A stretch of DNA of 64,000 nucleotides from an uncultured Clostridia bacterium (lineage in GTDB: Bacteria > Bacillota > Clostridia > UBA1381 > UMGS1253): contig CAKSHP010000004.1 in assembly GCA_934457145.1 (NCBI GenBank), positions 37,026 to 101,025 of the forward strand, written 5' to 3'. Made by a program: the position numbers and the translations under genes. Shown here one piece after another: positions 12,750-64,000 of the stretch. Each line of letters begins with the position of its first letter. Positions within the stretch are counted from its first letter, which is position 1. The notes beneath the pieces were generated by a model that ran no database searches, was not told where the DNA came from, and saw only the letters and a program-made list of their open reading frames with translations.

Positions 12750-12887
12750 TTAAAAAACCTCCTTAAAAATCATTAAACACACAACCTACATTATACTATT
12801 ATCTATATGTAAATGTCAATGATTTATATTCAAAATATATTGTTAAAAAATAAAAGGCGTACATAAAAAGCAAAGGTGTGAATAACT

Positions 12888-42229: not shown

Positions 42230-43012
42230 TTATTGCAAAAGAAAGTTTTTTCGTTTATATTCGCCGGGAGTTGCGTTGAGAAATTTTTTAAAAACGCGGT
42301 CAAAATAATATGCTGAAGAAAATCCGCACATAGAAGCAATTTTTGAAACGCCGAAATTGCTGCTTATTAAAAGCTGTTTTGCCAAATTCAGCCGAAGCGA
42401 GGTTATAAATTTTACGGGCGTTGTGTGGTATACGGCAAAGAATGTGCGCCTGAAATGCCCTTCGCTCATGTTAGCGGCATCGGCTAAATATTTTACGGTT
42501 AAAGAAGGGTCGGTATAGTTTAAATTGATAATTTTAACGGCTGCTTCAAGCTGTTTTTTTCTTATCGAGGGAATATAGCTGCATATTGAAGAAAAAACAA
42601 TTTTTGAATATATATCATAAAGTATGGATTTGCAGAGTATTTTGTCTGAAAAATTTCCGATTGTCCAGAGATTTAAAAACCGGTAAAATAAATTTTCGGT
42701 TTGGCTTTGGTTTTTGTAAACCGCATTTTCCATAACGGCATTTTTAAATTCAAACAAGAAATCTATAAATATAAAGCTGTAATCCGAAACGGTCACTTCT
42801 ATATCATAAGTGCTTTTATAAGCAAGATAGATTATATCTCCCGGCTCAATAAAATAGTCTTTGCCCGAAAATGTGTATTTTGCACTGCCCGATAAAACAT
42901 ATACGAAACAGTCGCTCTTTCGCTCGCTGCAGTGCGGAGCGGAAACGGGAAAGGTTGCTTTTGTTACCGAGAGGATTTTTTGTATGTTTAATTCGCTGTT
43001 TGTTATCTTCAT
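42230..43012 (-). CDS. AraC-family transcriptional regulator (cupin sensor + HTH), divergent from the glycyl-radical enzyme gene
   Basis: About 260 aa from the ATG at 43012 (RBS GGTGA). It has a cupin-like N-half and a C-terminal AraC HTH (GFSSAYYFDRVFKKFLNATPGEYR). Confidence 0.85.
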   Translation of the reverse strand: MKITNSELNIQKILSVTKATFPVSAPHCSERKSDCFVYVLSGSAKYTFSGKDYFIEPGDIIYLAYKSTYDIEVTVSDYSFIFIDFLFEFKNAVMENAVYKNQSQTENLFYRFLNLWTIGNFSDKILCKSILYDIYSKIVFSSICSYIPSIRKKQLEAAVKIINLNYTDPSLTVKYLADAANMSEGHFRRTFFAVYHTTPVKFITSLRLNLAKQLLISSNFGVSKIASMCGFSSAYYFDRVFKKFLNATPGEYKRKNFLLQ

Positions 43013-43122
43013 TTTTATCACCGAAATTATTTTATAATATTGAAAACCAAAAATCAAGGAAAAACAAAAAAATATGTTTGAAATGTATTATTTTGCTGTT
43101 TTGTGTATTTACAAAATACAAA

Positions 43123-43182
43123 GCAAATGATATTATATTTACGCAAATGATATTATATTTACGCAAATGATATTATATTTAC
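43123..43182 (+). repeat. Three perfect tandem copies of a 20-bp unit (GCAAATGATATTATATTTAC) immediately upstream of the GRE RBS
   Basis: The copies are at 43123-43142, 43143-43162 and 43163-43182, followed by GGAGG (43183-43187) and the ATG at 43195. Each unit contains an extended -10-like TGATATTAT. Confidence 0.95.
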
Positions 43183-43194
43183 GGAGGCGGTAAA

Positions 43195-45354
43195 ATGTTT
43201 GGTGAATTTGAAAAGTATAAATCAAATTTTAAAAATCAAGACGAAAAAAATAACGGACGCTTTGGCGAAGATGAAAAAACGCTTCGGCAAAACATTAGAA
43301 AAATAATAAACGAAAACTCTTCGGTTGCCGGGGCAAAGAAAGAGGCGATAAGATATATTTTATTAAATGCAAATGTCGATATAGCGGAAGAGGATATTTT
43401 TGCCGACAAAATCGAACATTTTGACATTATGAAAGATTTTCTAAACGAACGCATAGAACTTTTGAAACAAAAAGACGAAAGAAAAACCGCAGAAAAACAA
43501 AAACTGCTGGAGGATACCGGCTGTATCACGGCGGGATTTGATTTCGGGCATATCGGACCGGACTGGGACTTTTTAATGCAAAACGGAATTTCAAAAACGA
43601 TAGAGCGGCTTAAAGAGTTTAAACAAAAAAACAAAGATAAAAAAGAGTTTTATGATAGGTGCATAACCGTGTATGAAGCGATACAGTCGCTTTTTTATAA
43701 AATGGCAAAATGCGGCGAAAGCTTAAAAACAAAAAACGGCAGCTTTATTTCAGAAAACCTTAAAAGTCTTGCAAAAAATCCGCCGAAAACTCTTGTGCAG
43801 GCTATGAATCTTAGTTTGCTGATGTATGAAATATTAACAAATTTAGATAACACAACAGTGCGCTCGCTCGGCGGTTTGGATCATTTGTATTATCCGTTTT
43901 ACAAATCCGATCTTGAAAGCAAGCGTTTTACGGAAAAACAGCTTCGAAAATTTACGCGCCTGTTTTTAAAAAAACTCAGCGAAAAAAAAGCGATTGCGAA
44001 TATGCCGTTTTATATATGTTCGGCAGACCAAAACGGAAACGACATGACCAATCCTTATACAAAAGTTTTGATACAGGAGTATTTATCGCTTGATATATAC
44101 GATCCGAAATTTCATGTTATGTATCACAAAAATATTGATAAAGACATACCCGAGATGATTTTAAAAGCGATACGGGACGGAAAAAACAGCTTTGTTTTTA
44201 TAAATTCAGATACGGCGAAAAATGCGCTTGAAAAAATAGGGATAAGCAAAGAAGATGCAAAAAGAATAACCGTTTACGGCTGTTATGAAACGGCTGCCGA
44301 GGGCTGCGAAGTTGCCGCAACGTGCGGAGGATATGTTAATCTGGCAAAAGCAGTTGAGCTTGCAATGTTTAACGGCTGCGATGTTTTATCAAAAAAACAG
44401 ATAGCAATAAAAACAGGGGAAGATTTTGAAAGCTTTGATGAATTTTACGGAGCGGTTAAAAAGCAGATTGAATTTATGACAAACGCCGCAATGGATATAA
44501 ATACCGCATACGAAAAAGGATATGACAAGGTTTTTTCTTCGCCCGTGCTGTCTGCAACATACAAATGCAGCGTGCAGAGCGGAACCGATTTATATTTGGG
44601 CGGTGCAAAGTATAACAATACTTCAATTGTCGGCGCCGGAATTGCAACTCTTGTTGACAGCCTGGCTGCCGTGCGAAAGATTGTTTTTGAAGAAAAAAAG
44701 GTTACGCTCAGCGAGCTTAAAGAAATTCTTAAATCCGACTGGAAAGAAAGAGAAGACCTTTGCAATTACTGTTTAACAAAGCTTTCAAAATACGGAAACG
44801 ATTGCAGCGAGGCAGATATTTACGCTTGTGAAATAACAGAATTTTTCTCACGTCTCGTAAACGGCAAAAAGAACGGGCGCGGCGGAGTTTTTCGCAGCGG
44901 TTTGTTTTCTGTTGATATGAGGTTTGGTTTCGGCAAAAAACTTTGTGCAACGCCGAACGGAAGAAAAAGCGGCGAGCCGATTTCAAAAAATGCCGCGCCT
45001 TCGGACGGAGCGGACAAAAACGGCGTAACAGCATATTTAAACTCTATGCTGAAAATGGATTTTTCAAACTTTCCGGACGGATGCGTTGCAGATGTTGTTT
45101 TGCACTGTTCATCTGTTGAGGGAGATGACGGCATGCAGGCGTTTTTTGGGCTTTTGTATTCGTTTATGAAACGCGGAGGATTTGCAGTTCATTTTAATGT
45201 TTTAAGTCCGCAAAAGTTAAAAAAGGCGCAAAAAGAACCCGAAAAGTATAAAAATCTGCAAATCAGACTGTGCGGCTGGAATGTGCGCTTTACAGATTTG
45301 AGCAAAGAAGAACAGGACAGATTTATTTTGCAGTCGGAAAATGCTTATAATTAA
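43195..45354 (+). CDS. Glycyl-radical enzyme (PFL-like superfamily), short and divergent, substrate unknown
   Basis: 719 aa. The C-terminal glycyl-radical loop is QIRLCGWNVRFTDLSKEEQDRFI (compare PflB RVSGYAVRFNSLTKEQQ). The catalytic loop is VYGCYETAAEG (single Cys, Glu at +2). Confidence 0.85.
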   Translation: MFGEFEKYKSNFKNQDEKNNGRFGEDEKTLRQNIRKIINENSSVAGAKKEAIRYILLNANVDIAEEDIFADKIEHFDIMKDFLNERIELLKQKDERKTAEKQKLLEDTGCITAGFDFGHIGPDWDFLMQNGISKTIERLKEFKQKNKDKKEFYDRCITVYEAIQSLFYKMAKCGESLKTKNGSFISENLKSLAKNPPKTLVQAMNLSLLMYEILTNLDNTTVRSLGGLDHLYYPFYKSDLESKRFTEKQLRKFTRLFLKKLSEKKAIANMPFYICSADQNGNDMTNPYTKVLIQEYLSLDIYDPKFHVMYHKNIDKDIPEMILKAIRDGKNSFVFINSDTAKNALEKIGISKEDAKRITVYGCYETAAEGCEVAATCGGYVNLAKAVELAMFNGCDVLSKKQIAIKTGEDFESFDEFYGAVKKQIEFMTNAAMDINTAYEKGYDKVFSSPVLSATYKCSVQSGTDLYLGGAKYNNTSIVGAGIATLVDSLAAVRKIVFEEKKVTLSELKEILKSDWKEREDLCNYCLTKLSKYGNDCSEADIYACEITEFFSRLVNGKKNGRGGVFRSGLFSVDMRFGFGKKLCATPNGRKSGEPISKNAAPSDGADKNGVTAYLNSMLKMDFSNFPDGCVADVVLHCSSVEGDDGMQAFFGLLYSFMKRGGFAVHFNVLSPQKLKKAQKEPEKYKNLQIRLCGWNVRFTDLSKEEQDRFILQSENAYN

Positions 45355-45371
45355 GAGAAAGGACAATCGTT

Positions 45372-46247
45372 ATGATATTTGATATAAAGAGGTTTGCCGT
45401 TCATGACGGCAACGGAATACGGACAACAGTGTTTTTTAAAGGGTGTCCTTTAAAGTGCGTTTGGTGTCATAATCCGGAGGGGATAGGCTTTAAAAGCCAG
45501 ACGGCATACTATGAGGATAAATGCGTCCGCTGCGGCAGCTGTGTTTCGGTGTGTAAAAACGGCGCGCAAAAAATAGTTGACGGAAAGCATGTGTTTGAAA
45601 GAGAGAGGTGCACAGGCTGCGCAGAATGCGAAAAAGTCTGTCCGCAGGGAGCAATAAAGGTTTACGGGAAAAACATGATGGCAGAAGAAGTTGAAAAAAT
45701 TGTTTTAAAAGACAAAGATTTTTATGAAAGCTCCGGCGGAGGAGTTACGCTTTCGGGCGGAGAATGTTTAATGCAGCCTGAATTTTGCAAAGATATTTTA
45801 AAAAGATTAAAAGAAAAAAATATTAACACAGCCGTTGACACATGCGGATTTGTTTCAAGAGAAGCGATAGATAAGGTTATTGATTATACGGATATGTTTT
45901 TGTATGATATAAAAGCCTTTGACGAAGACGTGCATATAAAATGCTGCGGACATTCAAACAAAATTATACTGGACAATCTTTTATATATTAATTCAAGAAA
46001 CATAAAAACCGAAATACGCATACCATATGTTTATGGGTTTAATGATAATCAGACAGATAAAATATTTAAGTTTTTATCGGATTTAAAATGCATAAGTGCG
46101 GTGAAGATTTTGCCGTATCATAATTATGCGGGCTCAAAATATAAAGCTTTAAACATGGAAAATACGCTTCCCGAAATGACTGACGCAGCCGGGCAGATAG
46201 AAAAAGCAAGAAAAAAAGCAAGCTCATACGGGCTTTTATGCAAATAA
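45372..46247 (+). CDS. Glycyl-radical enzyme activating protein (radical SAM, with two auxiliary 4Fe-4S motifs)
   Basis: 291 aa with GCPLKCVWCHNPE (CxxxCxxC) plus CVRCGSCVSVC and CTGCAECEKVCP. Confidence 0.9.
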   Translation: MIFDIKRFAVHDGNGIRTTVFFKGCPLKCVWCHNPEGIGFKSQTAYYEDKCVRCGSCVSVCKNGAQKIVDGKHVFERERCTGCAECEKVCPQGAIKVYGKNMMAEEVEKIVLKDKDFYESSGGGVTLSGGECLMQPEFCKDILKRLKEKNINTAVDTCGFVSREAIDKVIDYTDMFLYDIKAFDEDVHIKCCGHSNKIILDNLLYINSRNIKTEIRIPYVYGFNDNQTDKIFKFLSDLKCISAVKILPYHNYAGSKYKALNMENTLPEMTDAAGQIEKARKKASSYGLLCK

Positions 46248-46258
46248 AAATGCTGTGT

Positions 46259-46299
46259 AAAAAACGAACGTCTGGCATTCGCCCTGCGTTCGTTTTTTT
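46259..46299 (+). terminator. Rho-independent terminator after the activase gene
   Basis: AAAAACGAACG ... CGTTCGTTTTTTT. Confidence 0.8.
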
Positions 46300-46309
46300 A
46301 ATAAAAATC

Positions 46310-46338
46310 TTGACATTTTAATATAGCGGTCATATAAT
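46310..46338 (+). promoter_or_regulatory. Consensus sigma-A promoter (TTGACA-17-TATAAT)
   Basis: TTGACA at 46310-46315 and TATAAT at 46333-46338. The -10 box ends 1 nt before the ORF-track ATG (46340), which argues for the downstream start at 46385. Confidence 0.6.
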
Positions 46339-46384
46339 TATGAAAAAGACGGCTACAGGAAAGAAAAAAGTGGGGAATGTTGAT

Positions 46385-47197
46385 ATGTTTGAAGATATTT
46401 ATCCCTTTTGCGCGGAAAATGAAAGTCCGTTTGAGATAAGCCTTTGCGGAATATCATATTGCGACGGCAGCTATAAAATAGAGCGGAAAAAATCCGACAT
46501 AAACGTGATAGAATATATCGTTTCGGGAAACGGCAGAGTAAATGAAAATAAAAATGCTTTTAATGCCGGAGAGGGCGATGTCTATTTTTTAAAGCACGGC
46601 AGAGATCACCTTTATTTTTCTGACGCGGACAACCCGTGGGTTAAAATATGGTTTAATTTTAAGGGCGAATTTGCCGATGCGGTAACGAGGTGTTATAATC
46701 TTGAAAACTGCGCGCATTTTCATGCTCCGCAGCTTAGAGATGATTTTGAAGAAGTTATAAAAATGGCAAAAACCGAAACGAAAACAGAGGAGTTTTTCGA
46801 AAAATCGGCGGCAATATTTTTAAAAATTGCGCAAAAGCTTTCAAAACTGAAAAACGAAGAAACAAATAAAAAATCGCAGGTTGCGCAGCTTTTGAAAAAC
46901 AAAATCGATAACAGCGCGGACATTAACAGGCCTTTTGAAGATATACTAAAAGAGCTTTTTTGTTCAAAATGCCATGCAATAAGAGAGTTTAGAAAAGCAT
47001 ACAATATAACGCCGTATGCCTATATTTTAAACAAAAAATTCGAAACCGCAAAAATGCTTTTAACAAACACGGCGCTGCCTGTGGGAGCTATTGCCGAAAA
47101 GCTCGGATTTTGCGATTTACAGTATTTTTGCGTGAGCTTTAAAAAGAGGTTTTCTGTAACGCCGACGGACTATCGAAAAAACAAAACGGAAAAATAA
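46385..47197 (+). CDS. AraC-family transcriptional regulator (cupin + HTH)
   Basis: About 270 aa from MFEDIYPF (RBS GTGGGGA). Has a cupin-like N-half and a C-terminal HTH (GFCDLQYFCVSFKKRFSVTPTDYR). The in-frame ATG at 46340 is an alternative start. Confidence 0.85.
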   Translation: MFEDIYPFCAENESPFEISLCGISYCDGSYKIERKKSDINVIEYIVSGNGRVNENKNAFNAGEGDVYFLKHGRDHLYFSDADNPWVKIWFNFKGEFADAVTRCYNLENCAHFHAPQLRDDFEEVIKMAKTETKTEEFFEKSAAIFLKIAQKLSKLKNEETNKKSQVAQLLKNKIDNSADINRPFEDILKELFCSKCHAIREFRKAYNITPYAYILNKKFETAKMLLTNTALPVGAIAEKLGFCDLQYFCVSFKKRFSVTPTDYRKNKTEK

Positions 47198-53291: not shown

Positions 53292-55409
53292 ATGGGGCTT
53301 ATGGCTAAATCCGTTGGGAAAAACGTTTTGGACACAAAATGCAAACCACAAAAGAAAAACGAAAAAATAATAGCGCTTGCAGGCAATCCGAACGTCGGCA
53401 AAAGCACAGTCTTTAACGCACTTACCGGACTTCATCAGCACACGGGAAACTGGCCGGGGAAAACGGTCGGAAATGCACAGGGAAAAGTTGAATTCGACGG
53501 TGAGGAATATATTATATACGATCTTCCGGGAACATATTCTCTTATGGCTCATTCAAAGGAAGAAGAGGCTGCAAGAGATTTTATCTGCTTTGAAAAGCCC
53601 GATGCTGTTGCTGTGGTGTGCGACGCGTCGTGTCTTGAAAGAAATTTGAATTTAGTATTACAGACAATTGAAATAACAAAAAATGTTGTTGTGTGTGTAA
53701 ATTTAATGGATGAGGCGAAAAGAAAGGGAATAAGCGTTAATACAAATAAGCTGTCGAAACTGCTCGGTGTGCCGGTGGTTGCGATGTGTGCAAAAAAGAA
53801 AATAGGATTAAATCAAATGTTAAGGCAGATTAAAAACGTTTTAAAAAGGGACAGTAAAGAAACGTTTGAAATATCATACGGCGAAGATGTTAAAAAAGCG
53901 GCGAAAACGGTTTGCGCCTCGCTCGGCGATATAAAAATAAACAAAAATTGGCTTGCGCTCCGCCTTTTGGAGGGTGATGCGCAAAATATTTCAAATATAG
54001 AAAAATACATAGGCGTTTCGCTTTCGGATAATGATAATATAAAAAGTGCAGTACAAAACGCAAAACAGTTTTTAAAAGCGGATGAGTCCTTTTCGGATAA
54101 AATTGTTGAAAAAATCGTTTTCGAAGCAGAAAACATATTTAAACAAACCGTGAAAACCGATAATAAAAAATATAATGATTTTGATAAAAAAACGGATAAA
54201 ATTTTAACAGGCAGATTAACGGGTATACCCGTTATGATTGCGCTTTTGGCGGTTGTGTTTTGGATAACGGTATTCGGTGCAAATATTATATCCGATTTTT
54301 TGTCGGAAGCTTTTTTAATATGCGAAAGATTTATTTTAAGTTTTTTTGAGGGGCTGAATGTTTCGCCCGTTATATACAAACCGATTGTTTTCGGGATATA
54401 TCGGGTGAGCGCATGGGTTGTTTCGGTTATGCTTCCGCCGATGGCTATATTTTTTCCGCTTTTTACGCTGCTTGAGGATTTGGGGTATCTGCCAAGGGTT
54501 GCCTTTAATCTTGACCACTCTTTTAAAAAGTGCTGTGCATGCGGAAAACAGGCGCTGACCACCTGTATGGGATTTGGCTGCAATGCATGCGGAGTTGTGG
54601 GATGCAGAATAATAGATTCGCCAAGAGAGCGCCTTATTGCAATTATAACAAACAACTTTGTTCCGTGCAACGGAAGAATACCGCTGCTTATTATGATTGC
54701 CGCAATGTTTTTTTCGCCAAACGGCGGACTTGGCGGCGCGCTTGTGTGTGCACTGGCGCTGACGGGCGCTGTGGTTTTGGGAATTGCGGCAACGTTTTTG
54801 GCATCAAAAATATTGTCTGAAACAATTTTAAAAGGCGAAGCCTCGTCTTTTACGCTGGAGCTTCCGCCGTATCGAAAACCGCAGATAGGAAAAATTTTTT
54901 TACGCTCGGTTTTTGACAGAACGTTGTTTGTTTTGGGCAGAGCGGTTATGGTTGCGGCGCCTGCGGGGCTTGTGATATGGATTCTGGCAAACACGGCAGC
55001 CAATGGCAGACCGCTTCTTATACAGATAAGCGGATTTTTAGACCCGTTTGCAAAAATTCTTGGTTTTGACGGAGCTGTTTTGCTTGCGTTTATATTGGGA
55101 TTTCCGGCAAACGAACTTGTTATTCCGCTTATAATGATGATATATATGGCATCGTCGGAACTTATGCAGATTCCCGATTTGCTTATGCTTAAGGATTTGT
55201 TTTTAAAAAACGGCTGGAACGGCTGCACGGCTGTGTGTGTTATGCTTTTTTCTCTTATGCACTGGCCCTGCTCGACAACGATGCTCACCGTAAAAAAAGA
55301 AACGCAAAGTTTAAAATGGAGCGCGGCGGCGTTTTTGGTGCCGACTCTTTTCGGAATGGCAATATGTGCATTATTTAATTTTGCAGTTAAAATTTTAGGG
55401 TTATATTAA
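53292..55409 (+). CDS. feoB: Ferrous iron transport protein B
   Basis: 705 aa. The N-terminal G domain has GNPNVGKST and DLPGTYS, followed by a polytopic permease domain. Confidence 0.95.
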   Translation: MGLMAKSVGKNVLDTKCKPQKKNEKIIALAGNPNVGKSTVFNALTGLHQHTGNWPGKTVGNAQGKVEFDGEEYIIYDLPGTYSLMAHSKEEEAARDFICFEKPDAVAVVCDASCLERNLNLVLQTIEITKNVVVCVNLMDEAKRKGISVNTNKLSKLLGVPVVAMCAKKKIGLNQMLRQIKNVLKRDSKETFEISYGEDVKKAAKTVCASLGDIKINKNWLALRLLEGDAQNISNIEKYIGVSLSDNDNIKSAVQNAKQFLKADESFSDKIVEKIVFEAENIFKQTVKTDNKKYNDFDKKTDKILTGRLTGIPVMIALLAVVFWITVFGANIISDFLSEAFLICERFILSFFEGLNVSPVIYKPIVFGIYRVSAWVVSVMLPPMAIFFPLFTLLEDLGYLPRVAFNLDHSFKKCCACGKQALTTCMGFGCNACGVVGCRIIDSPRERLIAIITNNFVPCNGRIPLLIMIAAMFFSPNGGLGGALVCALALTGAVVLGIAATFLASKILSETILKGEASSFTLELPPYRKPQIGKIFLRSVFDRTLFVLGRAVMVAAPAGLVIWILANTAANGRPLLIQISGFLDPFAKILGFDGAVLLAFILGFPANELVIPLIMMIYMASSELMQIPDLLMLKDLFLKNGWNGCTAVCVMLFSLMHWPCSTTMLTVKKETQSLKWSAAAFLVPTLFGMAICALFNFAVKILGLY

Positions 55410-55453
55410 TTGAAAATGCGGAAAAAATAATCCTAAAAGGAGATGATTTAATT

Positions 55454-55885
55454 ATGAGTACGGACACGGTCGAGCTTTTAAAAGAATGCAATGCGGGAGT
55501 GAAGATGGGAGTTTGCGCAATTGAAGACGTTGAAGACAACGTTTCGGATAAAAGCTTTAAAAAAGTTCTTTCTCAAAACAAAAAAGAGCATCAGGATATC
55601 GGCAGCGAAATCCATGAAATTTTAAACAGTATGGATGAGGCGGGAAAAGAGCCGAATGTTATGGCTAAAGGAATGAGCTGGATAAAAACAAATGTGAAGA
55701 TTTCGTTAGACGACAGCGACAACACTATTGCAGATCTTATAACGGACGGCTGCAACATGGGGGTAAAGTCATTAAACAAATATTTAAATCAGTATAAAGC
55801 GGCAGACGAACAGTCGAAAAAAATTGCAAAAAAACTTATTGATTTGGAGCATGACTTAACGATTAATATAAGAAAGTATCTTTAA
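55454..55885 (+). CDS. Hypothetical helical protein with an internal two-fold repeat
   Basis: 143 aa with RBS AAAGGAG. The two halves share CN-x-GVK ... KK-[VL]-[LI] ... EH-x-D. No family confidently recognised. Confidence 0.55.
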   Translation: MSTDTVELLKECNAGVKMGVCAIEDVEDNVSDKSFKKVLSQNKKEHQDIGSEIHEILNSMDEAGKEPNVMAKGMSWIKTNVKISLDDSDNTIADLITDGCNMGVKSLNKYLNQYKAADEQSKKIAKKLIDLEHDLTINIRKYL

Positions 55886-55902
55886 AATTTTAGCAAAAGT
55901 GC

Positions 55903-55952
55903 AAAAAAGGGCTGTTAAAAAGTCAATTGATTTTTTAACAGCCCCTCTTTTT
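55903..55952. terminator. Bidirectional terminator
   Basis: AAAAAAGGGCTGTTAAAAA ... TTTTTAACAGCCCCTCTTTTT. Confidence 0.85.
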
Positions 55953-55957
55953 AAAAT

Positions 55958-57049
55958 TTATTTTTCAATTGCATTTTTTAAAACCGGATACAAAGCATCT
56001 GCCCAGGCTGTGCATCCTGTGGAGTTGGGGTGTCCGCCGTATTTTGCAATATGCAAAAGCTCTTTGCTTTGGCTTAAAACGTCCGAGGTGTCAAAAATAC
56101 CTATGCATTTAGGAGCAATGACGGTTTTTATGTATTCGTTTACATTTTTCCAGATATCAATTTTTTCGCCTGTATAGTCAAACGGAGGCACTGTCTGGAT
56201 AAACACTTTAACGCCCGCAGCCGTCAGCTTGTCTGTGATATTTAAAAGATCGTTTTTAATCTGATTTTCGCTTCTGCCCTGAAGAATATCGTTAACGCCG
56301 TAGCACACGACAACAACGTCGTTTTGCTTTGCTTTAAAAAGCCATGCGCTGTCTGAGGCGGCATCCTGAGCGCGTCCGAAACCGAGGCCTAAATTCCAAT
56401 ATGCATACAAAAAGCCTAACTTTTTTGCAACCTTATAGTTCCAGTGCTCATAAGAATTTATGTCGGTTCCGATTCCCTGAGTGATAGAGTCGCCTAAAAA
56501 TGCAATTTTAAGCTTTGCATCTCTTTTGCAGCCGAGCATTGACAAAAACGGCATATGTTTGCAAGGCTCCCAGGCTCCGTCTTTTAAAATAAATGTTGGT
56601 ATCAGGCTTTCTTCGTGGCAAAAAAACTCTTTTGCGCTGAAGCTTATCTGAATGCATATATAGTCTGTGCTGTTTGCACAAAGCTTTAAAGGATCGCTTG
56701 CAAAAAATTCTCCGGGCATAACTTCTTTTTGATCTTTGCCTGAAAACGTTACCGGAAAAAAGCGGATGTCATCTGTCATATGATCTGCACAGCATGTGCT
56801 GCACACTCCGGCAGACAAAGAATGTATCGTCCAGCCGCCGCATATTAAATTGCAGTGGCTTAATTTGCCGTCTGAAAATGTGCTGTCGGCTATGTTTGAA
56901 AATAAAAACGAATATTCGTATTCGCCGCCGTTATTTACTTTATAAAATAATCTTCCCGTTTTTATCTCGTTTTCGTTTTCGCTTTTAACAAGCATTTGAT
57001 TGCCGCTTCCGGCAGATGTGTTTGAAACAAAATTTTTAAAATATTCCAT
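55958..57049 (-). CDS. SGNH/GDSL-family hydrolase with an N-terminal ~170-aa extra domain
   Basis: 363 aa. Block I is IAFLGDSITQG, block III is VVCYGVNDI, and block V has a His in KYGGHPNSTG. It is divergent from the dlt-like operon. Confidence 0.8.
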   Translation of the reverse strand: MEYFKNFVSNTSAGSGNQMLVKSENENEIKTGRLFYKVNNGGEYEYSFLFSNIADSTFSDGKLSHCNLICGGWTIHSLSAGVCSTCCADHMTDDIRFFPVTFSGKDQKEVMPGEFFASDPLKLCANSTDYICIQISFSAKEFFCHEESLIPTFILKDGAWEPCKHMPFLSMLGCKRDAKLKIAFLGDSITQGIGTDINSYEHWNYKVAKKLGFLYAYWNLGLGFGRAQDAASDSAWLFKAKQNDVVVVCYGVNDILQGRSENQIKNDLLNITDKLTAAGVKVFIQTVPPFDYTGEKIDIWKNVNEYIKTVIAPKCIGIFDTSDVLSQSKELLHIAKYGGHPNSTGCTAWADALYPVLKNAIEK

Positions 57050-57156
57050 TTTTATCAGCTCCGCATTTTTTTATTTATATTTTAACCTATTTGTAAAGAA
57101 AAATCAATAGTTTGTAAAAATAAATGCCGCTTTAATCAAATTTTAGCCTTAAGGCA

Positions 57157-57185
57157 TTGACAAAACATAGTTTAAACTGTATAAT
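57157..57185 (+). promoter_or_regulatory. Consensus sigma-A promoter (TTGACA-17-TATAAT) of the dlt-like operon
   Basis: TTGACA at 57157-57162 and TATAAT at 57180-57185. Confidence 0.7.
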
Positions 57186-57268
57186 TGTTAATATGTGAAA
57201 ATGGAAAAATTATAAAATTTATACGGTTTAAAAATTGTTTTTAATAAATTTGAAAGGTTGATGTTTCG

Positions 57269-58801
57269 GTGTATAACTCGGCAGTGTGCCTTCTTGATGA
57301 GGCTTGTAGAAAATATCCGGATAAAACGGCTGTTATTGATGAAAACGGAAAGATAACGTTTTTGCAGCTTAAAGAAAAGGCAATGAGGGTTGCTTCGTAT
57401 TTGGAAAAAGAAAAAAACGCTTCAAAAGCTCCCGTTGTTGTTTATATGAAAAAGAGCATTGATTGCATAGTTTCGTTTATGGCTGTTTTATACAGCGGCA
57501 GGGCATATGTTCCGGTTGCGGGTGATATGCCGTTTGAAAGAGTCAGAAAAATTACGGATAATTTAAATCCTTCGTTTATCATTGCAGACTCGCAGCGTTT
57601 AGAGATATTAAATCAAAACGGTGCTGCAAATAATGCAGTTTTGTTTGAAACTGCCGCCGGGTTTGAAAGTGACGAAGAAAAAATAAAAAATATACAGCAA
57701 AAGGTTATCGATACAGATCCGATATACATAATGTATACGTCGGGTTCAACGGGAGATCCCAAAGGCGTAACGGTTTCGCACAAGGGCGTTATAGACTATG
57801 TTACATGGACAAAAACCACATTCGGCTTTAATGAAAACGATATTTTCGGAAATCAGGCGCCGTTTTATTTTGACAACTCTATTTTTGATATTTACGGCTG
57901 TCTGATAACAGGGGCAACTATGGTTATAATCCCGGAGGTGCTTTTTAATTTTCAAAACAAGCTTCCCGAATACGTTGAAGAAATGAAAATAACGGTTATT
58001 TTCTGGGTTCCGACTATTTTGATAAATGTTGCAAATGCGGGCGCGCTTGATGAGTGCCGTATGACGCATCTTAAAAAGGTTCTTTTCTGCGGAGAGGTTA
58101 TGCCAAACACTCAGCTTAATATCTGGAGAGAGCACTATCCCGACTTAATGTATGCAAATTTGTACGGACCGACGGAAATTACGGACGTGTGCACATATTA
58201 TATAGTTGACAGAGAGTTTGAAAACAGCGAGCCTCTGCCTATAGGACGCGCATGCAAAAATATGAGAACATATATAATAACCGAAAGCGGAAAGCTTGCA
58301 AAAACAAATGAAACGGGCGAGCTTTGCATAGCCGGCACGGGCGTGGCGCTTGGATATTATAACAACAAAGAAATAACAGACAAAGCCTTTATACAAAATC
58401 CGTTTAATCCGTATTATTCGGAGAGGCTTTACAGAACAGGCGATCTGGCTTATGAAAACGAAGAGGGACTTTTGATGTATGTCGGGCGCATGGATTCGCA
58501 GATAAAAATAAACGGAAACAGAGTTGAGCTTGGCGAAATTGAAAATGCGGCTATGTGCATAGAAGGCGTTTCAAGAGCCTGTGCCGCACTTGACAGCAAT
58601 AAAAACGCGATTGCGCTGTTTATTGAGGCGGCCGGCGAATATAAACTGCGCCATGTGAACAACGAATTAAAAAAGCATATCCCAAAATACATGCTTCCTG
58701 GCGAGCTTTTTGTGTTAGAAAAATTTCCGCACACTTCAAACGATAAAATAGACAGGGTATCTTTAAAAAAGCTGCTCTGCGGAAAAGACGGTGAAAAATA
58801 A
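57269..58801 (+). CDS. Stand-alone amino-acid adenylating enzyme, DltA-like (ligase 1 of 3)
   Basis: 510 aa with a GTG start. Core motifs present: YIMYTSGSTGDPKGV, FYFDNS, NLYGPTE, GELCIAGTGVALGYY, YRTGDLAY, GRMDSQIKINGNRVELGEIE and SNDKIDR. No C, T or TE domains. Confidence 0.88.
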   Translation: MYNSAVCLLDEACRKYPDKTAVIDENGKITFLQLKEKAMRVASYLEKEKNASKAPVVVYMKKSIDCIVSFMAVLYSGRAYVPVAGDMPFERVRKITDNLNPSFIIADSQRLEILNQNGAANNAVLFETAAGFESDEEKIKNIQQKVIDTDPIYIMYTSGSTGDPKGVTVSHKGVIDYVTWTKTTFGFNENDIFGNQAPFYFDNSIFDIYGCLITGATMVIIPEVLFNFQNKLPEYVEEMKITVIFWVPTILINVANAGALDECRMTHLKKVLFCGEVMPNTQLNIWREHYPDLMYANLYGPTEITDVCTYYIVDREFENSEPLPIGRACKNMRTYIITESGKLAKTNETGELCIAGTGVALGYYNNKEITDKAFIQNPFNPYYSERLYRTGDLAYENEEGLLMYVGRMDSQIKINGNRVELGEIENAAMCIEGVSRACAALDSNKNAIALFIEAAGEYKLRHVNNELKKHIPKYMLPGELFVLEKFPHTSNDKIDRVSLKKLLCGKDGEK

Positions 58802-60336
58802 TGAACTCAGTTTTGACGCTTATAGAAGAAACAATAAAGAAATTTCCGAAAAACATTGCAATTGATGATGAAAAAACAGCTATGACATATGAGCAGCTTT
58901 ATAACTCATATAACTGTATTGCGCAGGCTATCATATCAAAATCTTCGGGCGAGGTAAAGCGTCCGGTTTTGGTATATCTGCCGAAAAGCGCAAAATCAGT
59001 GGTTTCATTTATGGGAGCGCTTGCAAGCGCGAATATGTATGTTCCGGCAGATTATAAAACGCCGCTTGAAAGACTTTCGGCAATGATTGATAATTTAAGT
59101 CCGATAATGATTATAACCGATGAAGCCGGAAAGGACACGCTTTCGTCTTTCGGTATAACAAAAGATGTGTGCGTTTATGACGAGCTTTTAAAAACAAAAG
59201 CCGATTTAGAAGAAATTGAGGAATATAAAAATTATGTTATAGACACGGATCCGGCATATGTTATGTATACTTCCGGTTCGACAGGCGTTCCGAAAGGCGT
59301 TGTTATTGCACACAGAGGAATTATAAACTATGCGCTTTGGCTTATCGACGAATTTAAGATAAACGAGAAATCGGTTTTGGGGCTTCAGTCGGGTTTTCAT
59401 TTTGACAACTCCGTGTTTGATATATATACAAGCTTTTTTACGGGCGCAAAGATGGTTATAATTCCGGAAATACTTTTTATGTATCCGGGACAGCTTATAG
59501 AGTTTATGCAAAAAAAAGAAATAACAACAATCTTTTGGGTGCCGACGGTTATGATAAACGTTGCAAATTCGCAGGCTTTGGAAAATGCAAGTTTGCCAAA
59601 CCTTAAAACTGTTGTTTTTGCAGGCGAGGTAATGCCTAACAAACAGTTAAACATATGGAGAAAAAATTTAAAGGACTGTGTGTATGCGAATTTGTACGGG
59701 CCGACGGAAATCACGGTTGACTGCACATATTATATAGTTGACAGAAAATTTGAAAACAGCGATCCGTTGCCCATAGGAAAAAGCGTTCCGAACAACCGCG
59801 TGCTGATTTTAAATGAGCAAAACAAGCTTTGTGAGCCTTATGAACACGGCGAGCTGTGTGTTGCGGGATGCGGTGTGGCGCTCGGATATTATAATAATAA
59901 AGAGCTTACCGACAAGGTGTTTGTGCAAAATCCGCTCAACGATAAATATAAAGAAATAATTTACCGCACCGGAGATATTGCATATAAAGACGATGAGGGG
60001 CTTATTATGTATGTCGGCAGACGCGATAACCAGTTTAAGCTCAGGGGAAACAGAATAGAGCTCGGAGATATTGAAAATGCCGCATCGTGTGTTTCGTATG
60101 TTAAAAAATCGTGTGCGCTGTTTGACAGCGAAAACGAAAAAATTATTTTGGTTATAGAGTCGGATGAGGCAGTTAATTTAAGAAAGCTGAATTTGCTTTT
60201 GGCAAAGTATCTGCCAAAATATATGCTTCCCGGACAGCTTGAAATAACAGATAATATGCCGGTTACGCCGAATAACAAAATCGACCGAAAGGCGCTTTAT
60301 GCAAAATACACGAATTTGGGTGACAAAAAATGTTAA
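58801..60336 (+). CDS. Stand-alone amino-acid adenylating enzyme, DltA-like (ligase 2 of 3)
   Basis: 511 aa. Its ATG shares the A of the ligase-1 TAA stop (TAATG). It has the same full motif set (YVMYTSGSTGVPKGV, FHFDNS, NLYGPTE, YRTGDIAY, GRRDNQFKLRGNRIELGDIE, NNKIDR). Confidence 0.88.
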   Translation: MNSVLTLIEETIKKFPKNIAIDDEKTAMTYEQLYNSYNCIAQAIISKSSGEVKRPVLVYLPKSAKSVVSFMGALASANMYVPADYKTPLERLSAMIDNLSPIMIITDEAGKDTLSSFGITKDVCVYDELLKTKADLEEIEEYKNYVIDTDPAYVMYTSGSTGVPKGVVIAHRGIINYALWLIDEFKINEKSVLGLQSGFHFDNSVFDIYTSFFTGAKMVIIPEILFMYPGQLIEFMQKKEITTIFWVPTVMINVANSQALENASLPNLKTVVFAGEVMPNKQLNIWRKNLKDCVYANLYGPTEITVDCTYYIVDRKFENSDPLPIGKSVPNNRVLILNEQNKLCEPYEHGELCVAGCGVALGYYNNKELTDKVFVQNPLNDKYKEIIYRTGDIAYKDDEGLIMYVGRRDNQFKLRGNRIELGDIENAASCVSYVKKSCALFDSENEKIILVIESDEAVNLRKLNLLLAKYLPKYMLPGQLEITDNMPVTPNNKIDRKALYAKYTNLGDKKC

Positions 60337-61838
60337 ATAAAAGAAACACGGCGGTTTGCTTTTTGGAAGAAACAGCAAAAAAATATCCGGATAATATTGC
60401 CGTTGACGAAATAGGAAAGCTTTGCACGTTTGAAGATTTGTATAAAAAGAGCCGTGCGGCGGCGAGCGCAATTTTGAAAATGAATATAAAAAAGCAAAAT
60501 ATTGCCGTTATGCTGCCGAAAGGGGCAAACGCAATGTGCGCTTTTTTTGCCATACTCTACAGCGGAAAAACCTATGTGCCGCTTGATTACAACGATGCAG
60601 ACACAAGGCTTTTTACGATTATTGCGGCGGTTGACTGCGATTTGGTTATAACCGACGAAAATAATATTTCAAAATTTAAAGACGCGGGAATAAATGCCGT
60701 TTTGTACAGCGAAACGGAAAAATGCGAAATTGACGATGATGCTATTTATAATGCGCTTGAAACAGTATGCGACCTTGACAGCGCATACATAATGCACACA
60801 TCAGGCTCGACGGGCGTTCCGAAAGGCGTTGTTGTGTCGCACAGGGCGATAATTGATTTTACAAACTGGGCGGTAAAGCTTATGAAGCTTGATGAAACAA
60901 GCGTTATAGGATTGCAGTCGCCGTTTCATTTTGACGCATCCGTGTTTGATATATATGTGTGTATTGCAACAGGGGCAAAGCTTGCGCTGCTGCCGGATGT
61001 GTTGGTTAAATTTCCGGCAAAAATCCCTGAATTTATAGAAGAAAAGAAAGTTACCTGCATATTTTGGGTTCCGGGAATTTTAGCCGATATTGCAAATTCG
61101 GGCGCGCTTGAAAAATATGAGATGCCGTCACTAAAAATGTTTACGTTTGTCGGCGAAGTTATGCCGACAAGACAGTTTAACATGTGGTATAATAAAAATA
61201 AAAACAGAACATATATAAATCTTTACGGGCCGACGGAGGCGACCGTTGCGTGCACGGCGTATAAAATAAAAAAAGCTTTGCAGGACAGTGAGCCGATACC
61301 GATAGGCAGAGCGGGAGCAAACAAGCGGATTTTGATTATAAATGAAGAAGGTCGCGAGGCAAACGTCGGAGAGACAGGCGAGATTTGTATACTGGGCAGC
61401 TGCCTTGCTTTCGGGTACTACGGCAGAAAAGAAGAAACAAACAATGTGTTTGTGCAGAATCCGGCGAACATGGCATACCGCGAAATGATGTATAAAACCG
61501 GAGATTTCGGATATGTGAGCGAAAGCGGAGACATTATTTTTTCCGGCAGACGCGACAGTCAGGTTAAAATTCACGGCATAAGAGTGGAGCTTGGGGATAT
61601 TGAAAACGCTGCCTGCTGCATAGACGGTATTGAAAAGGCAAGCACCGTGCTGAAAGATGAAAAAATAACGCTGTTTTTGCAAACAAAAAAAAGCTTTAAC
61701 AAAAGGCAGTTTAATTTGCTTTTAAAAGAACATGTTCCGAAGTATATGCTGCCGGATGCTGTAGTGTGTCTTAATCAGTTTCCTTTAAACAAAAACGGAA
61801 AGACAGACAAAAAAAGACTTATAAGCGAAAATTATTAA
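60330..61838 (+). CDS. Stand-alone amino-acid adenylating enzyme, DltA-like (ligase 3 of 3)
   Basis: 502 aa, overlapping ligase 2 by 7 nt. Motifs: YIMHTSGSTGVPKGV, FHFDAS, NLYGPTEATVA, YKTGDFGY, GRRDSQVKIHGIRVELGDIE and KNGKTDK. Confidence 0.88.
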   Translation: MLNKRNTAVCFLEETAKKYPDNIAVDEIGKLCTFEDLYKKSRAAASAILKMNIKKQNIAVMLPKGANAMCAFFAILYSGKTYVPLDYNDADTRLFTIIAAVDCDLVITDENNISKFKDAGINAVLYSETEKCEIDDDAIYNALETVCDLDSAYIMHTSGSTGVPKGVVVSHRAIIDFTNWAVKLMKLDETSVIGLQSPFHFDASVFDIYVCIATGAKLALLPDVLVKFPAKIPEFIEEKKVTCIFWVPGILADIANSGALEKYEMPSLKMFTFVGEVMPTRQFNMWYNKNKNRTYINLYGPTEATVACTAYKIKKALQDSEPIPIGRAGANKRILIINEEGREANVGETGEICILGSCLAFGYYGRKEETNNVFVQNPANMAYREMMYKTGDFGYVSESGDIIFSGRRDSQVKIHGIRVELGDIENAACCIDGIEKASTVLKDEKITLFLQTKKSFNKRQFNLLLKEHVPKYMLPDAVVCLNQFPLNKNGKTDKKRLISENY

Positions 61839-61921
61839 CGCAAAGCGTGTAATTTTAACGTTTTTTATGTGTCCGGATAAAAAGCGATATTAATATTTAC
61901 GGACGGAAAGGCGAATTTGAA

Positions 61922-62170
61922 ATGAACAATATTGAAGAAAAAATTGAAAATTACATCAGAGAAACGTTTGACATAGGCGATGATCCCGAATTTTCAAACG
62001 ATATACATTTGTTTGACAGCGGATTTGTTGATTCATTGGGTGCGGTTGATATTGTTATGTTTGTGGAAAACGAATTTAACATTAAAATCACGCAGAAGGA
62101 TATAACTCTTTATCCTATGAACACTGTAAATGAAATTGCGGCTGTGGTAAAAAGCAAGCTTGAAGGTTAA
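61922..62170 (+). CDS. DltC-like acyl/aminoacyl carrier protein
   Basis: 82 aa with a phosphopantetheine-attachment context, LFDSGFVDSLGAVDIVMFVE. RBS GGAAAGG. Confidence 0.85.
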   Translation: MNNIEEKIENYIRETFDIGDDPEFSNDIHLFDSGFVDSLGAVDIVMFVENEFNIKITQKDITLYPMNTVNEIAAVVKSKLEG

Positions 62171-62193
62171 TATAAAATTATCGGAGAAATATA

Positions 62194-63342
62194 ATGTGGT
62201 TTTTACAAGAAGATATGCTTTTAAAGCTTCTTTTGTGTACTGCGGTTTTTATTTTTGGGATTTATGCGTTTGAAAAGCTTAAGATAAAACAGCATTTTAA
62301 AATTTTCAGCGCGCTTTTAAGCGCGGCGCTGATGTTTAGTTATTCAAAAGAGCTTGGACTGATTTACACAGCATACGTACTGCTCAGTTATGCTATGATT
62401 GTGATAATGCGGAAAATTAAAAAATGCAGAAAAGGTTTTTTTGTTGTTTTCTGCATTTTATTTGCGCTGCCGTTTTTTGCGTACAGAATAACGCCTGTTA
62501 AGAATTATTTCGGCTTTACGATAGTGCTTATCGGATTTGCATATAATATGCTAAAGGCAATCGATGCGCTTTTTTACACATACTATACTGATGAAAAAAT
62601 AGAATTTACAGACTATGCAAACTTTATTTTGTTTTTCCCCGTGTTTACATCGGGACCGATATTTCGCTACCGTGATTTTCACAAAGCCTTTGAAAACATT
62701 AAACCGCTGACGGCGGCATCTATGGAATACGGAATCAAACGCTTTATTTTGGGCATGTTTAAAAAGGTGGTTCTGATTACGCTTTTGAATATGGTTTTTG
62801 AAAAGCTTACGGCAATTGAACAGTATCACTTTTATCAAAGCATTGCAACGATAGCTTTGGCATATCTTATTTTGTATCTTGATTTGTCGGGATACAGCGA
62901 TATGGCGATAGGAATCGGAAGACTCACGTCTATGGAGGTGCCGGAAAACTTTAAACAGCCGTGGAGCGCTGCAAGCTTTACGCAGTTTTGGCGAAAGTGG
63001 CACGTTACATTAAGCGACTGGATACGCGAACACATCTTTGTTGTTGTGCAGGGAAAAAGGTTAAACAAGTATCAGTCGGCGCTTATCGGATTTGTGACAA
63101 TGATTGTTATGAGCCTGTGGCATGAGTTTACGCTGATAACTCTTATAGGCGGAATATATATGGGTTTGTTTTTGGTTATTGAAAACATTTTTTCGCTGTC
63201 AACGTTTAATGTCAGAAAAGAAAAAAAATATAAATATGTTTTGCGCTGCTTTTTGGTAAACTTTTTCTTTGCGGTAAATGCGCTGACCTTTTCGCTCGAT
63301 ATATCGAAAGTGGTTGATATTTTGAAAGGATTGGTAAGGTGA
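62194..63342 (+). CDS. MBOAT-family membrane O-acyltransferase (DltB/AlgI-like)
   Basis: 382 aa and polytopic, with FTQFWRKWHVTLSDWIREHIF and the conserved His context SLWHEF. Confidence 0.88.
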   Translation: MWFLQEDMLLKLLLCTAVFIFGIYAFEKLKIKQHFKIFSALLSAALMFSYSKELGLIYTAYVLLSYAMIVIMRKIKKCRKGFFVVFCILFALPFFAYRITPVKNYFGFTIVLIGFAYNMLKAIDALFYTYYTDEKIEFTDYANFILFFPVFTSGPIFRYRDFHKAFENIKPLTAASMEYGIKRFILGMFKKVVLITLLNMVFEKLTAIEQYHFYQSIATIALAYLILYLDLSGYSDMAIGIGRLTSMEVPENFKQPWSAASFTQFWRKWHVTLSDWIREHIFVVVQGKRLNKYQSALIGFVTMIVMSLWHEFTLITLIGGIYMGLFLVIENIFSLSTFNVRKEKKYKYVLRCFLVNFFFAVNALTFSLDISKVVDILKGLVR

Positions 63343-63343
63343 T

Positions 63344-64000
63344 ATGAAAAAGAATGTTAGATTTACCGGATTTGTTTTTGTGCTTATAGCTGTTTGGATT
63401 ATTTCAGACGTTTTTTTAACGTTTACCGATCCGGTTTCCCACTCGGCATATTTTCCGAAAAACGATTTTGAAATTACAAAAATGAAGCACCCGGAAAAGG
63501 TTTGGGACAAGGTGTTTTACGGAAGCTCGGTTGTGGTTAATTCGTATATTGAAGAAGAAAGCGGGAGCGGATATTATAACCTTGGAATAAGCTACGGAAC
63601 AGTGTCTGATATTTATGAGATGATTGAAAAAAAATATATAACTGTCGGCAGCGAGCTGGTTATAGGCTTAAACGATGTGACCTTTGTTGACTGGCTTGAC
63701 ACAAACCCGACCTATCCGTGGCACAAAAAGTGGTATCAGCATTATGTATATTTCAGAAGAGATAATATATGCCCGTTTTTAAAAGACGCATTTTCAAATG
63801 TAATGGCAAAGAAAAATCCGTTTGCAGAGCCTTTGTATACAAATCCGGGAAAGCTTTATGTTTACGGCGCGCTTTCTGATGAAGAGCTTGAAAAAAGCAA
63901 CGAATCAATGCTTGAAAGGTTCGGAGGCTGCACGGTTGATAAAGATTGCAGAAAAAATTTTGCGGATTTGGAAAAGCTTATAAAAATATGCAAAAAGAAA
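63344..64000 (+). CDS. Membrane-anchored DltD-like (SGNH-fold) protein, 3' end beyond the window
   Basis: The frame is open for 219 codons to the window edge, which is why it is absent from the ORF track. It has an N-terminal TM anchor (FTGFVFVLIAVWIISDVFL) followed by VFYGSSVV (a GSS-type block I). It starts 1 nt after the MBOAT stop. Confidence 0.55.
   Translation, partial: MKKNVRFTGFVFVLIAVWIISDVFLTFTDPVSHSAYFPKNDFEITKMKHPEKVWDKVFYGSSVVVNSYIEEESGSGYYNLGISYGTVSDIYEMIEKKYITVGSELVIGLNDVTFVDWLDTNPTYPWHKKWYQHYVYFRRDNICPFLKDAFSNVMAKKNPFAEPLYTNPGKLYVYGALSDEELEKSNESMLERFGGCTVDKDCRKNFADLEKLIKICKKK

Follow-up and report, generated by a model that had tools for sequence, protein, structure and literature searches.

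Towards the right-hand end of a 64,000-nucleotide stretch of DNA from an uncultured gut Clostridia bacterium (contig CAKSHP010000004.1; the whole stretch is referred to here as the window) lies a group of eight genes that resembles the Dlt pathway of Firmicutes, by which teichoic acids are D-alanylated, and that contains three adenylating ligases together with a single carrier protein. The window ends inside the sixth gene. An ENA scaffold of 119.8 kb, which encodes the MBOAT protein of the group, contains the window, and L001 numbering on it converts to window numbering by the addition of 52193. The features are as follows, the ligase classes being described below.

57157-57185, + strand: sigma-70-type promoter, TTGACA-17 nt-TATAAT, 12/12 consensus matches
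57269-58801, + strand: ligase 1 (class 1), 510 residues, GTG start; Pfam AMP-binding, TIGR01733
58801-60336, + strand: ligase 2 (class 2a), 511 residues; Pfam AMP-binding, TIGR01733
60330-61838, + strand: ligase 3 (class 3), 502 residues; Pfam AMP-binding, TIGR01733
61922-62170, + strand: DltC-like carrier protein, 82 residues; Pfam PP-binding, Ser38 in VDSLG
62194-63342, + strand: DltB-like MBOAT, 382 residues; Pfam MBOAT, TIGR04091, PDB and fold matches
63344-64237 (L001 end 12044), + strand: DltD-like membrane-anchored SGNH protein (ORF6), 297 residues; SGNH fold, catalytic residues
64234-64362 (L001 12041-12169), past the window end: DltX-like open reading frame (ORF) of 42 residues; C-terminal motif
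64379-64840 (L001 12186-12647), past the window end: 4HBT hotdog thioesterase, 153 residues; domain match

The promoter is the sole perfect site between 56900 and 64000, and the next strong one on the + strand (11/12) occurs only after the thioesterase gene, at L001 12672-12700. Ligases 1 and 2 meet at TAATG with an overlap of 1 nt, ligases 2 and 3 at ATGTTAA with an overlap of 7 nt and GGGTGA upstream. One gene caller begins ligase 3 at a TTG that lies 33 nt further on. However, the N-terminal residues gained with the overlapped ATG (TAVCFLEET) can be aligned with the N-terminus of ligase 1 (SAVCLLDEA), and the 7-nt overlap is also called in L082 and L083, two close relatives whose MBOATs are 79% and 81% identical to that of the window; the overlapped ATG is therefore the better supported start. 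Downstream, the 42-residue ORF overlaps the end of ORF6 by 4 nt and the thioesterase gene begins 16 nt after it. Since L082 and L083 hold the identical eight genes in identical order between different flanking genes, the eight represent a conserved unit. The one perfect promoter, the lack of a strong one before the end of the thioesterase gene, the overlapping or near-abutting genes and their retention in relatives together suggest a single operon. No leader RNA was matched by Rfam in 55000-64000. A GDSL/SGNH gene lies divergently upstream (55958-57049, minus strand) and was considered as a DltE-like esterase partner. It was rejected because its product has neither signal peptide nor transmembrane segment and because it is absent from the 80 genome loci described below and from the two closest relatives.

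Several of these features had been described in an earlier note, made from the letters of the window: the consensus promoter, three consecutive ORFs of about 505 residues, stop/start overlaps of 1 nt and 7 nt and a membrane-anchored protein that runs off the window. All were recovered, the overlaps being read directly at the junctions, and the last of them starts at 63344 with 219 of its 297 codons inside the window and the remainder on L001. The remark in the same note that no DltX-like small ORF is visible holds for the window itself and fails downstream, where such an ORF lies just past the window end.

A wider comparison was made with the MBOAT, which has 1705 homologues at E ≤ 1e-10. A scan of a collection in which a single genome represents each species gave at least 207 encoded relatives, of which 80 loci were taken. 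Counts given here refer to 81 loci unless stated, and those of ligase number to the 64 whose upstream region is complete. Nearly all of the relatives are gut or rumen Clostridia, among them Oscillospiraceae, Flavonifractor, Intestinimonas massiliensis, Lachnospiraceae bacterium MD329, Ca. Avilachnospira and Ca. Ornithomonoglobus, with one Gastranaerophilales. The homologues carry the names 'amino acid adenylation domain-containing protein', 'hypothetical protein' and, for some MBOATs, 'alginate O-acetyltransferase AlgI' in their sources. The arrangement of ligase(s), carrier, MBOAT and ORF6 is kept throughout the loci.

All three window ligases match Pfam AMP-binding (E 3e-74 for ligase 1, which also has a sub-threshold AMP-binding_C match, 22.0 bits against a cut-off of 24.5) and pass TIGR01733, the amino acid adenylation domain model, with 345-367 bits (366.6 for ligase 1) against a cut-off of 317. 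Motifs A3, A5, A7 and A8 and the A10 lysine are present in each, which bears out the complete adenylate-forming core, from A3 to the A10 Lys, that had been seen in every ORF. Searches against Pfam and NCBIfam found no condensation, thiolation or thioesterase domain in the three ligases, again as the earlier note had it, and neither the condensation (C) nor the thioesterase (TE) domain expected of a non-ribosomal peptide synthetase (NRPS) assembly line occurs anywhere in the operon. The three are 43-49% identical to one another (ligase 2 is 49% identical to ligase 1, and ligase 3 43% identical to both) and by sequence are old paralogues.

The carrier passes Pfam PP-binding with 32.6 bits and has its phosphopantetheine site at Ser38 in VDSLG, the DSLG serine that had been noted in this 82-residue protein; its best PDB sequence matches are all DltC (4bpg, 7r49, 8jf2 and 6bug_A). 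Its top NCBIfam match, the acyl carrier protein (ACP) for OlsHI, was rejected as a label because the score of 44.8 bits is far below the cut-off of 130 and because the OlsHI pathway depends on a GH3-like enzyme, which is unrelated (PMC12493201).

The MBOAT (Pfam MBOAT, E 3e-22) contains the sequences WRKWHVTLSDW and SLWHEF, and His270 and His310 are invariant in the family. Its sole NCBIfam match is TIGR04091, DltB, and its sole PDB sequence matches are DltB 6bug and 8jem, with E 1e-25. An AlphaFold2 model (mean predicted local distance difference test score, pLDDT, 77) has as its best fold match DltB 6bug_C, with E 1e-10 and TMq 0.71; matches to HHAT and PORCN are about five orders of magnitude worse. 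The dlt-like MBOAT with SLWHEF that had been proposed thus has DltB as its closest relative by hidden Markov model (HMM), sequence and fold.

ORF6 has 321 homologues, and the source names listed for these are all 'hypothetical protein'. Gly60, Ser62, Asn110, Asp272 and His275 are invariant and make up the full SGNH set. The AlphaFold2 model (pLDDT 91.7) has a transmembrane helix, residues 5-28, and an SGNH fold that matches DltD (7dxm, 6o93 and 3bma) at E of about 1e-4 with TMq of only 0.42-0.46, and also PatB. Against Pfam DltD the protein scores 22.1 bits where the cut-off is 22.7, and one homologue, P0135, passes with 23.0. As the family profile found only chance matches among PDB sequences, the link to DltD rests on Pfam and on the fold. 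On these grounds, namely the SGNH fold, the catalytic set, a borderline Pfam score and the presence of DltD among the best fold matches, the DltD-like character suggested for the ORF that runs off the window is supported.

The 42-residue ORF (MSMKKKVFKILYDILIMAMYIAMVFLIMIFFTGNGVFIYEGL) has a basic N-terminus, a single hydrophobic helix and the C-terminus GNGVFIYEGL. Its family has the consensus FFTGNGxFIYE[AG]F, in which G, G, F, Y and E are invariant (G-x-G-x-F-x-Y-E). A family profile places a DltX-like ORF in 61 of the 81 loci. In 50 it comes directly after ORF6, and in the other 11 it either lies at a greater distance downstream or forms the C-terminal end of a larger ORF. Pfam and NCBIfam gave nothing significant for the window microprotein, and the profile found no DltX chain among PDB sequences. 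DltX ends in the acyl-shuttle motif FxYxxF, the Tyr of which carries D-Ala from DltB to DltD (PMC12148441; PMC13653941). The C-terminal motif of the microprotein fits this pattern and, by analogy, the protein would be of the DltX type. In nine loci (L014, L020, L026, L060, L061, L066, L071, L074 and L076, at about 11950-13600) a DltX-like helix and FIYEAF tail end a larger, multi-pass protein of 400-520 residues, found in Flavonifractor, Intestinimonas and related organisms, which is related to PMT_2 (GT-C glycosyltransferase-like); PMT_2 proteins are encoded by separate genes in L004 and L009. Such a natural fusion of shuttle and GT-C protein may be a clue to the acceptor.

The last gene of the operon encodes a 4HBT thioesterase that is weakly YciA-like. 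It is present also in L082 (12197-12658) and L083 (7953-8423) and holds this position in the close clade of the window only.

How do these parts compare with known systems? For each of the five Dlt roles the operon has a Dlt-like counterpart: an adenylating ligase, a small carrier with a DS[LM]G serine, an MBOAT of about 380-415 residues to which no shuttle tail is fused, an SGNH protein anchored at its N-terminus and a single-pass microprotein whose C-terminus has the pattern F-x-Y-x-x-hydrophobic. Structures of DltB, DltC and DltD are the best or near-best PDB matches. The differences are that Dlt has one ligase whereas this family has one to three, none of them with the DltA pocket code; that the gene order is A-A-A-C-B-D-X and not X-A-B-C-D; that the SGNH protein, at 297 residues, is some 100 residues shorter than DltD (about 390); and that a hotdog thioesterase has been added in the clade of the window. 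In Vibrio cholerae an envelope molecule receives an amino acid other than D-Ala through the AlmEFG system, in which a ligase resembling DltA acts with a carrier resembling DltC. AlmEFG is, however, Gram-negative, with one ligase and no known SGNH or DltX partner, and AlmG is of the lysophospholipid-acyltransferase type, not an MBOAT. The three ligases also resemble stand-alone NRPS adenylation enzymes that act with free carriers (type II NRPS loading, for example PltF/PltL), in that they pass the generic adenylation model, but here there are no condensation, thioesterase or tailoring enzymes of the assembly-line type and the partners are membrane acyl-transfer proteins.

The PatA/PatB pair of peptidoglycan O-acetylation and AlgI-type pairs have in common with the present system the logic of transfer from MBOAT to acyl-Tyr shuttle to SGNH protein (PMC12148441). 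They take acetyl-CoA as donor, have no ligase or carrier and bear FxYxxF on the MBOAT itself, whereas here the shuttle motif is on a separate microprotein and the donor would be a carrier protein. Might the window MBOAT nevertheless use acetyl- or acyl-CoA in the manner of AlgI or PatA, with adenylation genes adjacent by chance? The AlgI annotation of some homologues is in favour. Yet the sole HMM and sequence matches and the best fold match are all DltB, and the window MBOAT has neither the pair of additional helices nor the fused FxYxxF tail of acyl-CoA-using bacterial MBOATs (PMC12148441). It ends in ...KGLVR, with no FxYxxF tail at the C-terminus. Bacterial MBOATs of the acyl-CoA type also lack a carrier and ligases, which are linked to this one in 79 of 81 loci, and ligase, carrier, MBOAT and SGNH protein occur together in nearly all 81. 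An acyl-CoA donor is therefore considered highly improbable.

The number of ligases varies. Among the 64 complete loci 12 have one ligase, 45 have two and seven have three. The single ligase is of class 1 in 11 loci and unclassified in one; the pairs are 1+2a in 19, 1+2b in 24 and other combinations in two; the seven triplets, all from the clade of the window, are 1+2a+3. A class 1 ligase is reported for every related locus, the unclassified single-ligase case apart. There are thus at least two ligases but a single carrier in 52 of the 64, and over the whole set exactly one carrier was found in 79 loci and never more than one. The proposal that three paralogous ligases share a single carrier/MBOAT/DltD-like set is matched by all seven three-ligase loci, each with one carrier, and the neighbourhood survey that had been recommended for clusters of this kind places them in a family of gut and rumen Clostridia with one to three ligases. 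The sequence of classes is fixed in all loci, 1 then 2 then 3, and in two three-ligase loci (L002 and L004) the order is lig1-lig2-ACP-lig3. Identity between classes is 42-59%, and to DltA about 30%; the core catalytic motifs are retained in most members of every class. Class 3 is confined to the clade of the window, and its relatives among 5.8 billion proteins form about 27 clusters with identities of at least 53%, the next being at 48% or less. In about 20 two-ligase loci a GNAT acetyltransferase of about 160 residues is encoded between ligase 2a and the carrier (L010 9251-9733 and equivalents), a position occupied by ligase 3 in most three-ligase loci; the GNAT may N-acetylate the aminoacyl group.

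The classes differ in their substrate pockets. Ten Stachelhaus positions were located by motif, the DltA sequences were checked against PDB 3e7w, 3dhv, 7r27 and 7vhv, and positions are given in what we take to be GrsA numbering. The codes are:

DltA (four PDB structures): DLM[TV][MLF]CTVA
class 1: DNFF[ALVSM]CLDVK; window ligase 1, DNFFLCLDVK
class 2a: DNFFVALVDK; window ligase 2, DNFFVALVDK
class 2b: DNFFLAMDIK
class 3: DAFF[TS][VI]LVAK; window ligase 3, DAFFTVLVAK

These codes are kept across dozens of species in which the ligases are only 40-70% identical, and those of L082 and L083 agree with the window. Within class 1, Ala replaces Cys in several one-ligase loci and three distant loci have DVMY... 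at the start. Against the DltA consensus, DLM[TV]xCTVA, each window ligase matches at only 2-3 of nine positions, and no class has the consensus. Asp235 and Lys517 are kept in all sequences but one (L081), which indicates α-amino-acid substrates, and the bulky residues Phe239, Phe278 and Leu322 suggest that the side chains of these substrates are small. Class 1 has the DltA-type Cys at position 301, presumably the residue that selects D- over L-Ala in DltA. Odd pockets occur in the single ligase of the Gastranaerophilales locus (L081 8215-9744), which has Glu for Asp at 235 (EMLFMSIFIK), and in the second ligase of L029 (8184-9734; DSTKLGLDVK), and suggest further diversity of substrate.

Could all three ligases activate D-Ala, the copies being a matter of dosage, of regulation or of differing physiological conditions? 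Leu299 and Cys301 of DltA are retained in ligase 1, Val330 and Ala331 in ligase 3, the DltA models are the second-best NCBIfam matches of the ligases, and there is a single carrier, a single MBOAT and a single SGNH protein. Set against this, only two or three of nine DltA pocket positions are found per ligase, the paralogues are old, the class signatures have been kept separately across many species and every ligase falls below the DltA cut-offs. In addition, as the ligase genes are co-transcribed and translationally coupled, their separate regulation is impossible. Plain D-alanylation by redundant ligases is considered quite unlikely. The earlier note had preferred a multi-substrate system to D-alanylation alone, and the old paralogues, the distinct conserved pocket signatures and the lack of a DltA match provide computational support for that preference.

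The reading we favour, with moderate confidence, is that the eight-gene operon encodes a Dlt-type, carrier-dependent relay that would attach more than one amino acid, in ester linkage, to an extracytoplasmic envelope polymer, by means of three different loading enzymes. The gene content and order, the motifs, the folds and the conserved, distinct pocket signatures are observed, whereas the direction of transfer, the loading of one shared carrier, the difference in substrates and the kind of acceptor are inferred. Each ligase would activate its own small α-amino acid as the aminoacyl-AMP and load the aminoacyl group as a thioester on the phosphopantetheine arm that the single carrier bears at Ser38. 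The DltB-like MBOAT, with His270 and His310, would move the group across the membrane to Tyr39 in the FIYEGL motif of the microprotein, from which the SGNH enzyme (Ser62, Asn110, Asp272, His275) would take it to esterify the acceptor. The hotdog thioesterase may edit the carrier, clearing mis-loaded forms. The class 1 ligase is probably the core activity, since it is universal in the family and has the DltA-type Cys at the position that would select the enantiomer; classes 2a, 2b and 3 would then be supplements that broaden the range of amino acids attached.

Genes linked to the operon in other genomes bear on the acceptor, which is probably an envelope glycopolymer. An LtaS-like membrane protein with a sulfatase domain and an SLH domain is linked in 14 loci (for example L012 528-3137 and L011 16734-19223) and hints at a polymer of the glycerol-phosphate type. 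A PMT_2 GT-C glycosyltransferase, sometimes fused to the DltX-like tail, is linked in 11 loci, and an FG-GAP-repeat membrane protein of about 990 residues in 51 of the 81 (for example L002 11076-14045 and L004 5380-8451), where it either precedes ligase 1 or follows the microprotein.

A number of observations weigh against the proposed relay. Each component falls below the curated models for its Dlt counterpart. Ligases 1 to 3 score 349.5, 308.1 and 319.7 bits with the DltA model NF003417 (cut-off 476) and 331.3, 294.6 and 307.7 bits with TIGR01734 (cut-off 559.85), and their similarity to NRPS adenylation domains (LgrA, GrsA) is as great as that to DltA. The carrier scores 36.0 and 29.7 bits with DltC models whose cut-offs are 68 and 52.35, the MBOAT 160.5 bits with TIGR04091 (cut-off 375) and ORF6 17 bits with TIGR04092, a DltD model (cut-off 150). 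By these scores the system is Dlt-like and not Dlt. The microprotein family gives no significant match to Pfam DltX (best E 0.076, two of 15 members), the last residue of the motif in the clade of the window is L or V and not F, and about 14-20 loci have neither a DltX-like ORF nor an MBOAT or SGNH protein that bears a shuttle motif. The pocket codes gave no convincing match to the specificity codes considered, so that no substrate is claimed, and there is no racemase nearby, which leaves the use of D-amino acids unsupported. The 64-kb window has no teichoic-acid genes, and FG-GAP, LtaS-like, PMT_2/GT-C, GNAT and DUF805 genes are absent from the window and the L001 extension. The loci without a DltX-like ORF (L046-L053, L056, L067-L069, L072, L073 and L077) are mostly from Ca. 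Ornithomonoglobus, with classes 1+2b, and in them a DUF805 membrane protein comes after the SGNH gene.

The absence of teichoic-acid and LtaS genes from the window and its extension is also what might be expected if the acceptor were a membrane lipid, a glycolipid or a protein, and the system made aminoacyl lipids or a secreted product. The best NCBIfam match of the carrier, a lipid-pathway ACP at 44.8 bits, would agree with this, though far below the cut-off, as would a hotdog thioesterase of the acyl-CoA type in the operon. The combination of MBOAT, shuttle Tyr and SGNH protein is, however, known so far only for acylation of extracytoplasmic polymers (PMC12148441), the OlsHI system uses an unrelated, GH3-like enzyme (PMC12493201) and envelope genes (LtaS-like, GT-C and FG-GAP) are linked in many related loci. 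We regard an acceptor of this kind as unlikely.

The fixed order of the ligases, 1-2-3 in all loci, raises a different option, that of ordered assembly, in which a first aminoacyl group would be esterified to the acceptor and later ones added onto its amine or onto each other to give a di- or tri-aminoacyl appendage. AlmEFG of V. cholerae installs glycine or diglycine on lipid A, and the GNAT that about 20 loci encode between ligase 2 and the carrier hints at further N-modification. On the other hand the operon has no condensation domain or other amide-forming enzyme, the sequence offers nothing that bears on the order of action, and an SGNH transferase that forms amides is without precedent in the Dlt literature examined (PMC12148441, PMC13653941). 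Ordered assembly, too, is judged distinctly improbable, and we retain the relay in which each ligase would supply an alternative amino acid for esterification.

The rest of the window consists of housekeeping genes, including SpoVAD, which identifies the host as a spore-former, and holds no second dlt-like set. Three large proteins (14232-17762 on the + strand, 20048-22225 and 34210-38418 on the minus strand) have a copper-amine-oxidase-N1-like domain, in one case with a GH10 xylanase domain and in another with F5/8 type C domains, and are probably surface-displayed glycan degraders. The interval 42230-47197 contains a glycyl-radical enzyme (43195-45354) and its radical-SAM activase (45372-46247) with two AraC-type regulators flanking them. 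Immediately after the operon is a gene for a CobW-type GTPase with a long His/Asp-rich tract (L001 12760-13839; HDHEHHHDHEHHHDHDHDHDHEHDE...), followed by a second CobW-like gene (L001 13920-14900); both probably encode metal chaperones under their own promoter.

The D-alanylation carried out by Dlt is a textbook determinant of Gram-positive surface charge, of resistance to antimicrobial peptides and of interaction with the host, and Dlt is treated as a system of one ligase and one amino acid. The earlier note knew of no characterised example of the present architecture, and a full-text literature search likewise found no description of a multi-ligase Dlt-like operon. We give an even chance to this being the first relay of the Dlt type that does not serve D-alanine alone, with interchangeable ligase classes (1, 2a, 2b and 3) that load different amino acids onto one carrier. 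The prediction is testable in vitro with three soluble enzymes and one small carrier, and two-ligase systems are carried by the cultured organisms Intestinimonas massiliensis Marseille-P3064, Flavonifractor sp. An306 and HCP28S3_F3, and Lachnospiraceae bacterium MD329.

Across a large gut and rumen Clostridia family most of the related relays have two or three ligases, as is the case in 52 of the 64 complete loci, and the distinct pockets predict envelope aminoacyl esters other than, or besides, D-Ala in hosts whose surface chemistry is essentially unstudied. The acyl-shuttle mechanism of DltX would extend to a divergent family, in some genomes with the shuttle tail fused to a GT-C-like protein, and the DltB/DltX/DltD-like relay would have to tolerate several acyl groups. 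If the proposal is correct, abundant gut Clostridia such as Flavonifractor, Intestinimonas, Oscillospiraceae and their relatives would possess a mixed aminoacyl-ester surface chemistry that is specific to each lineage.

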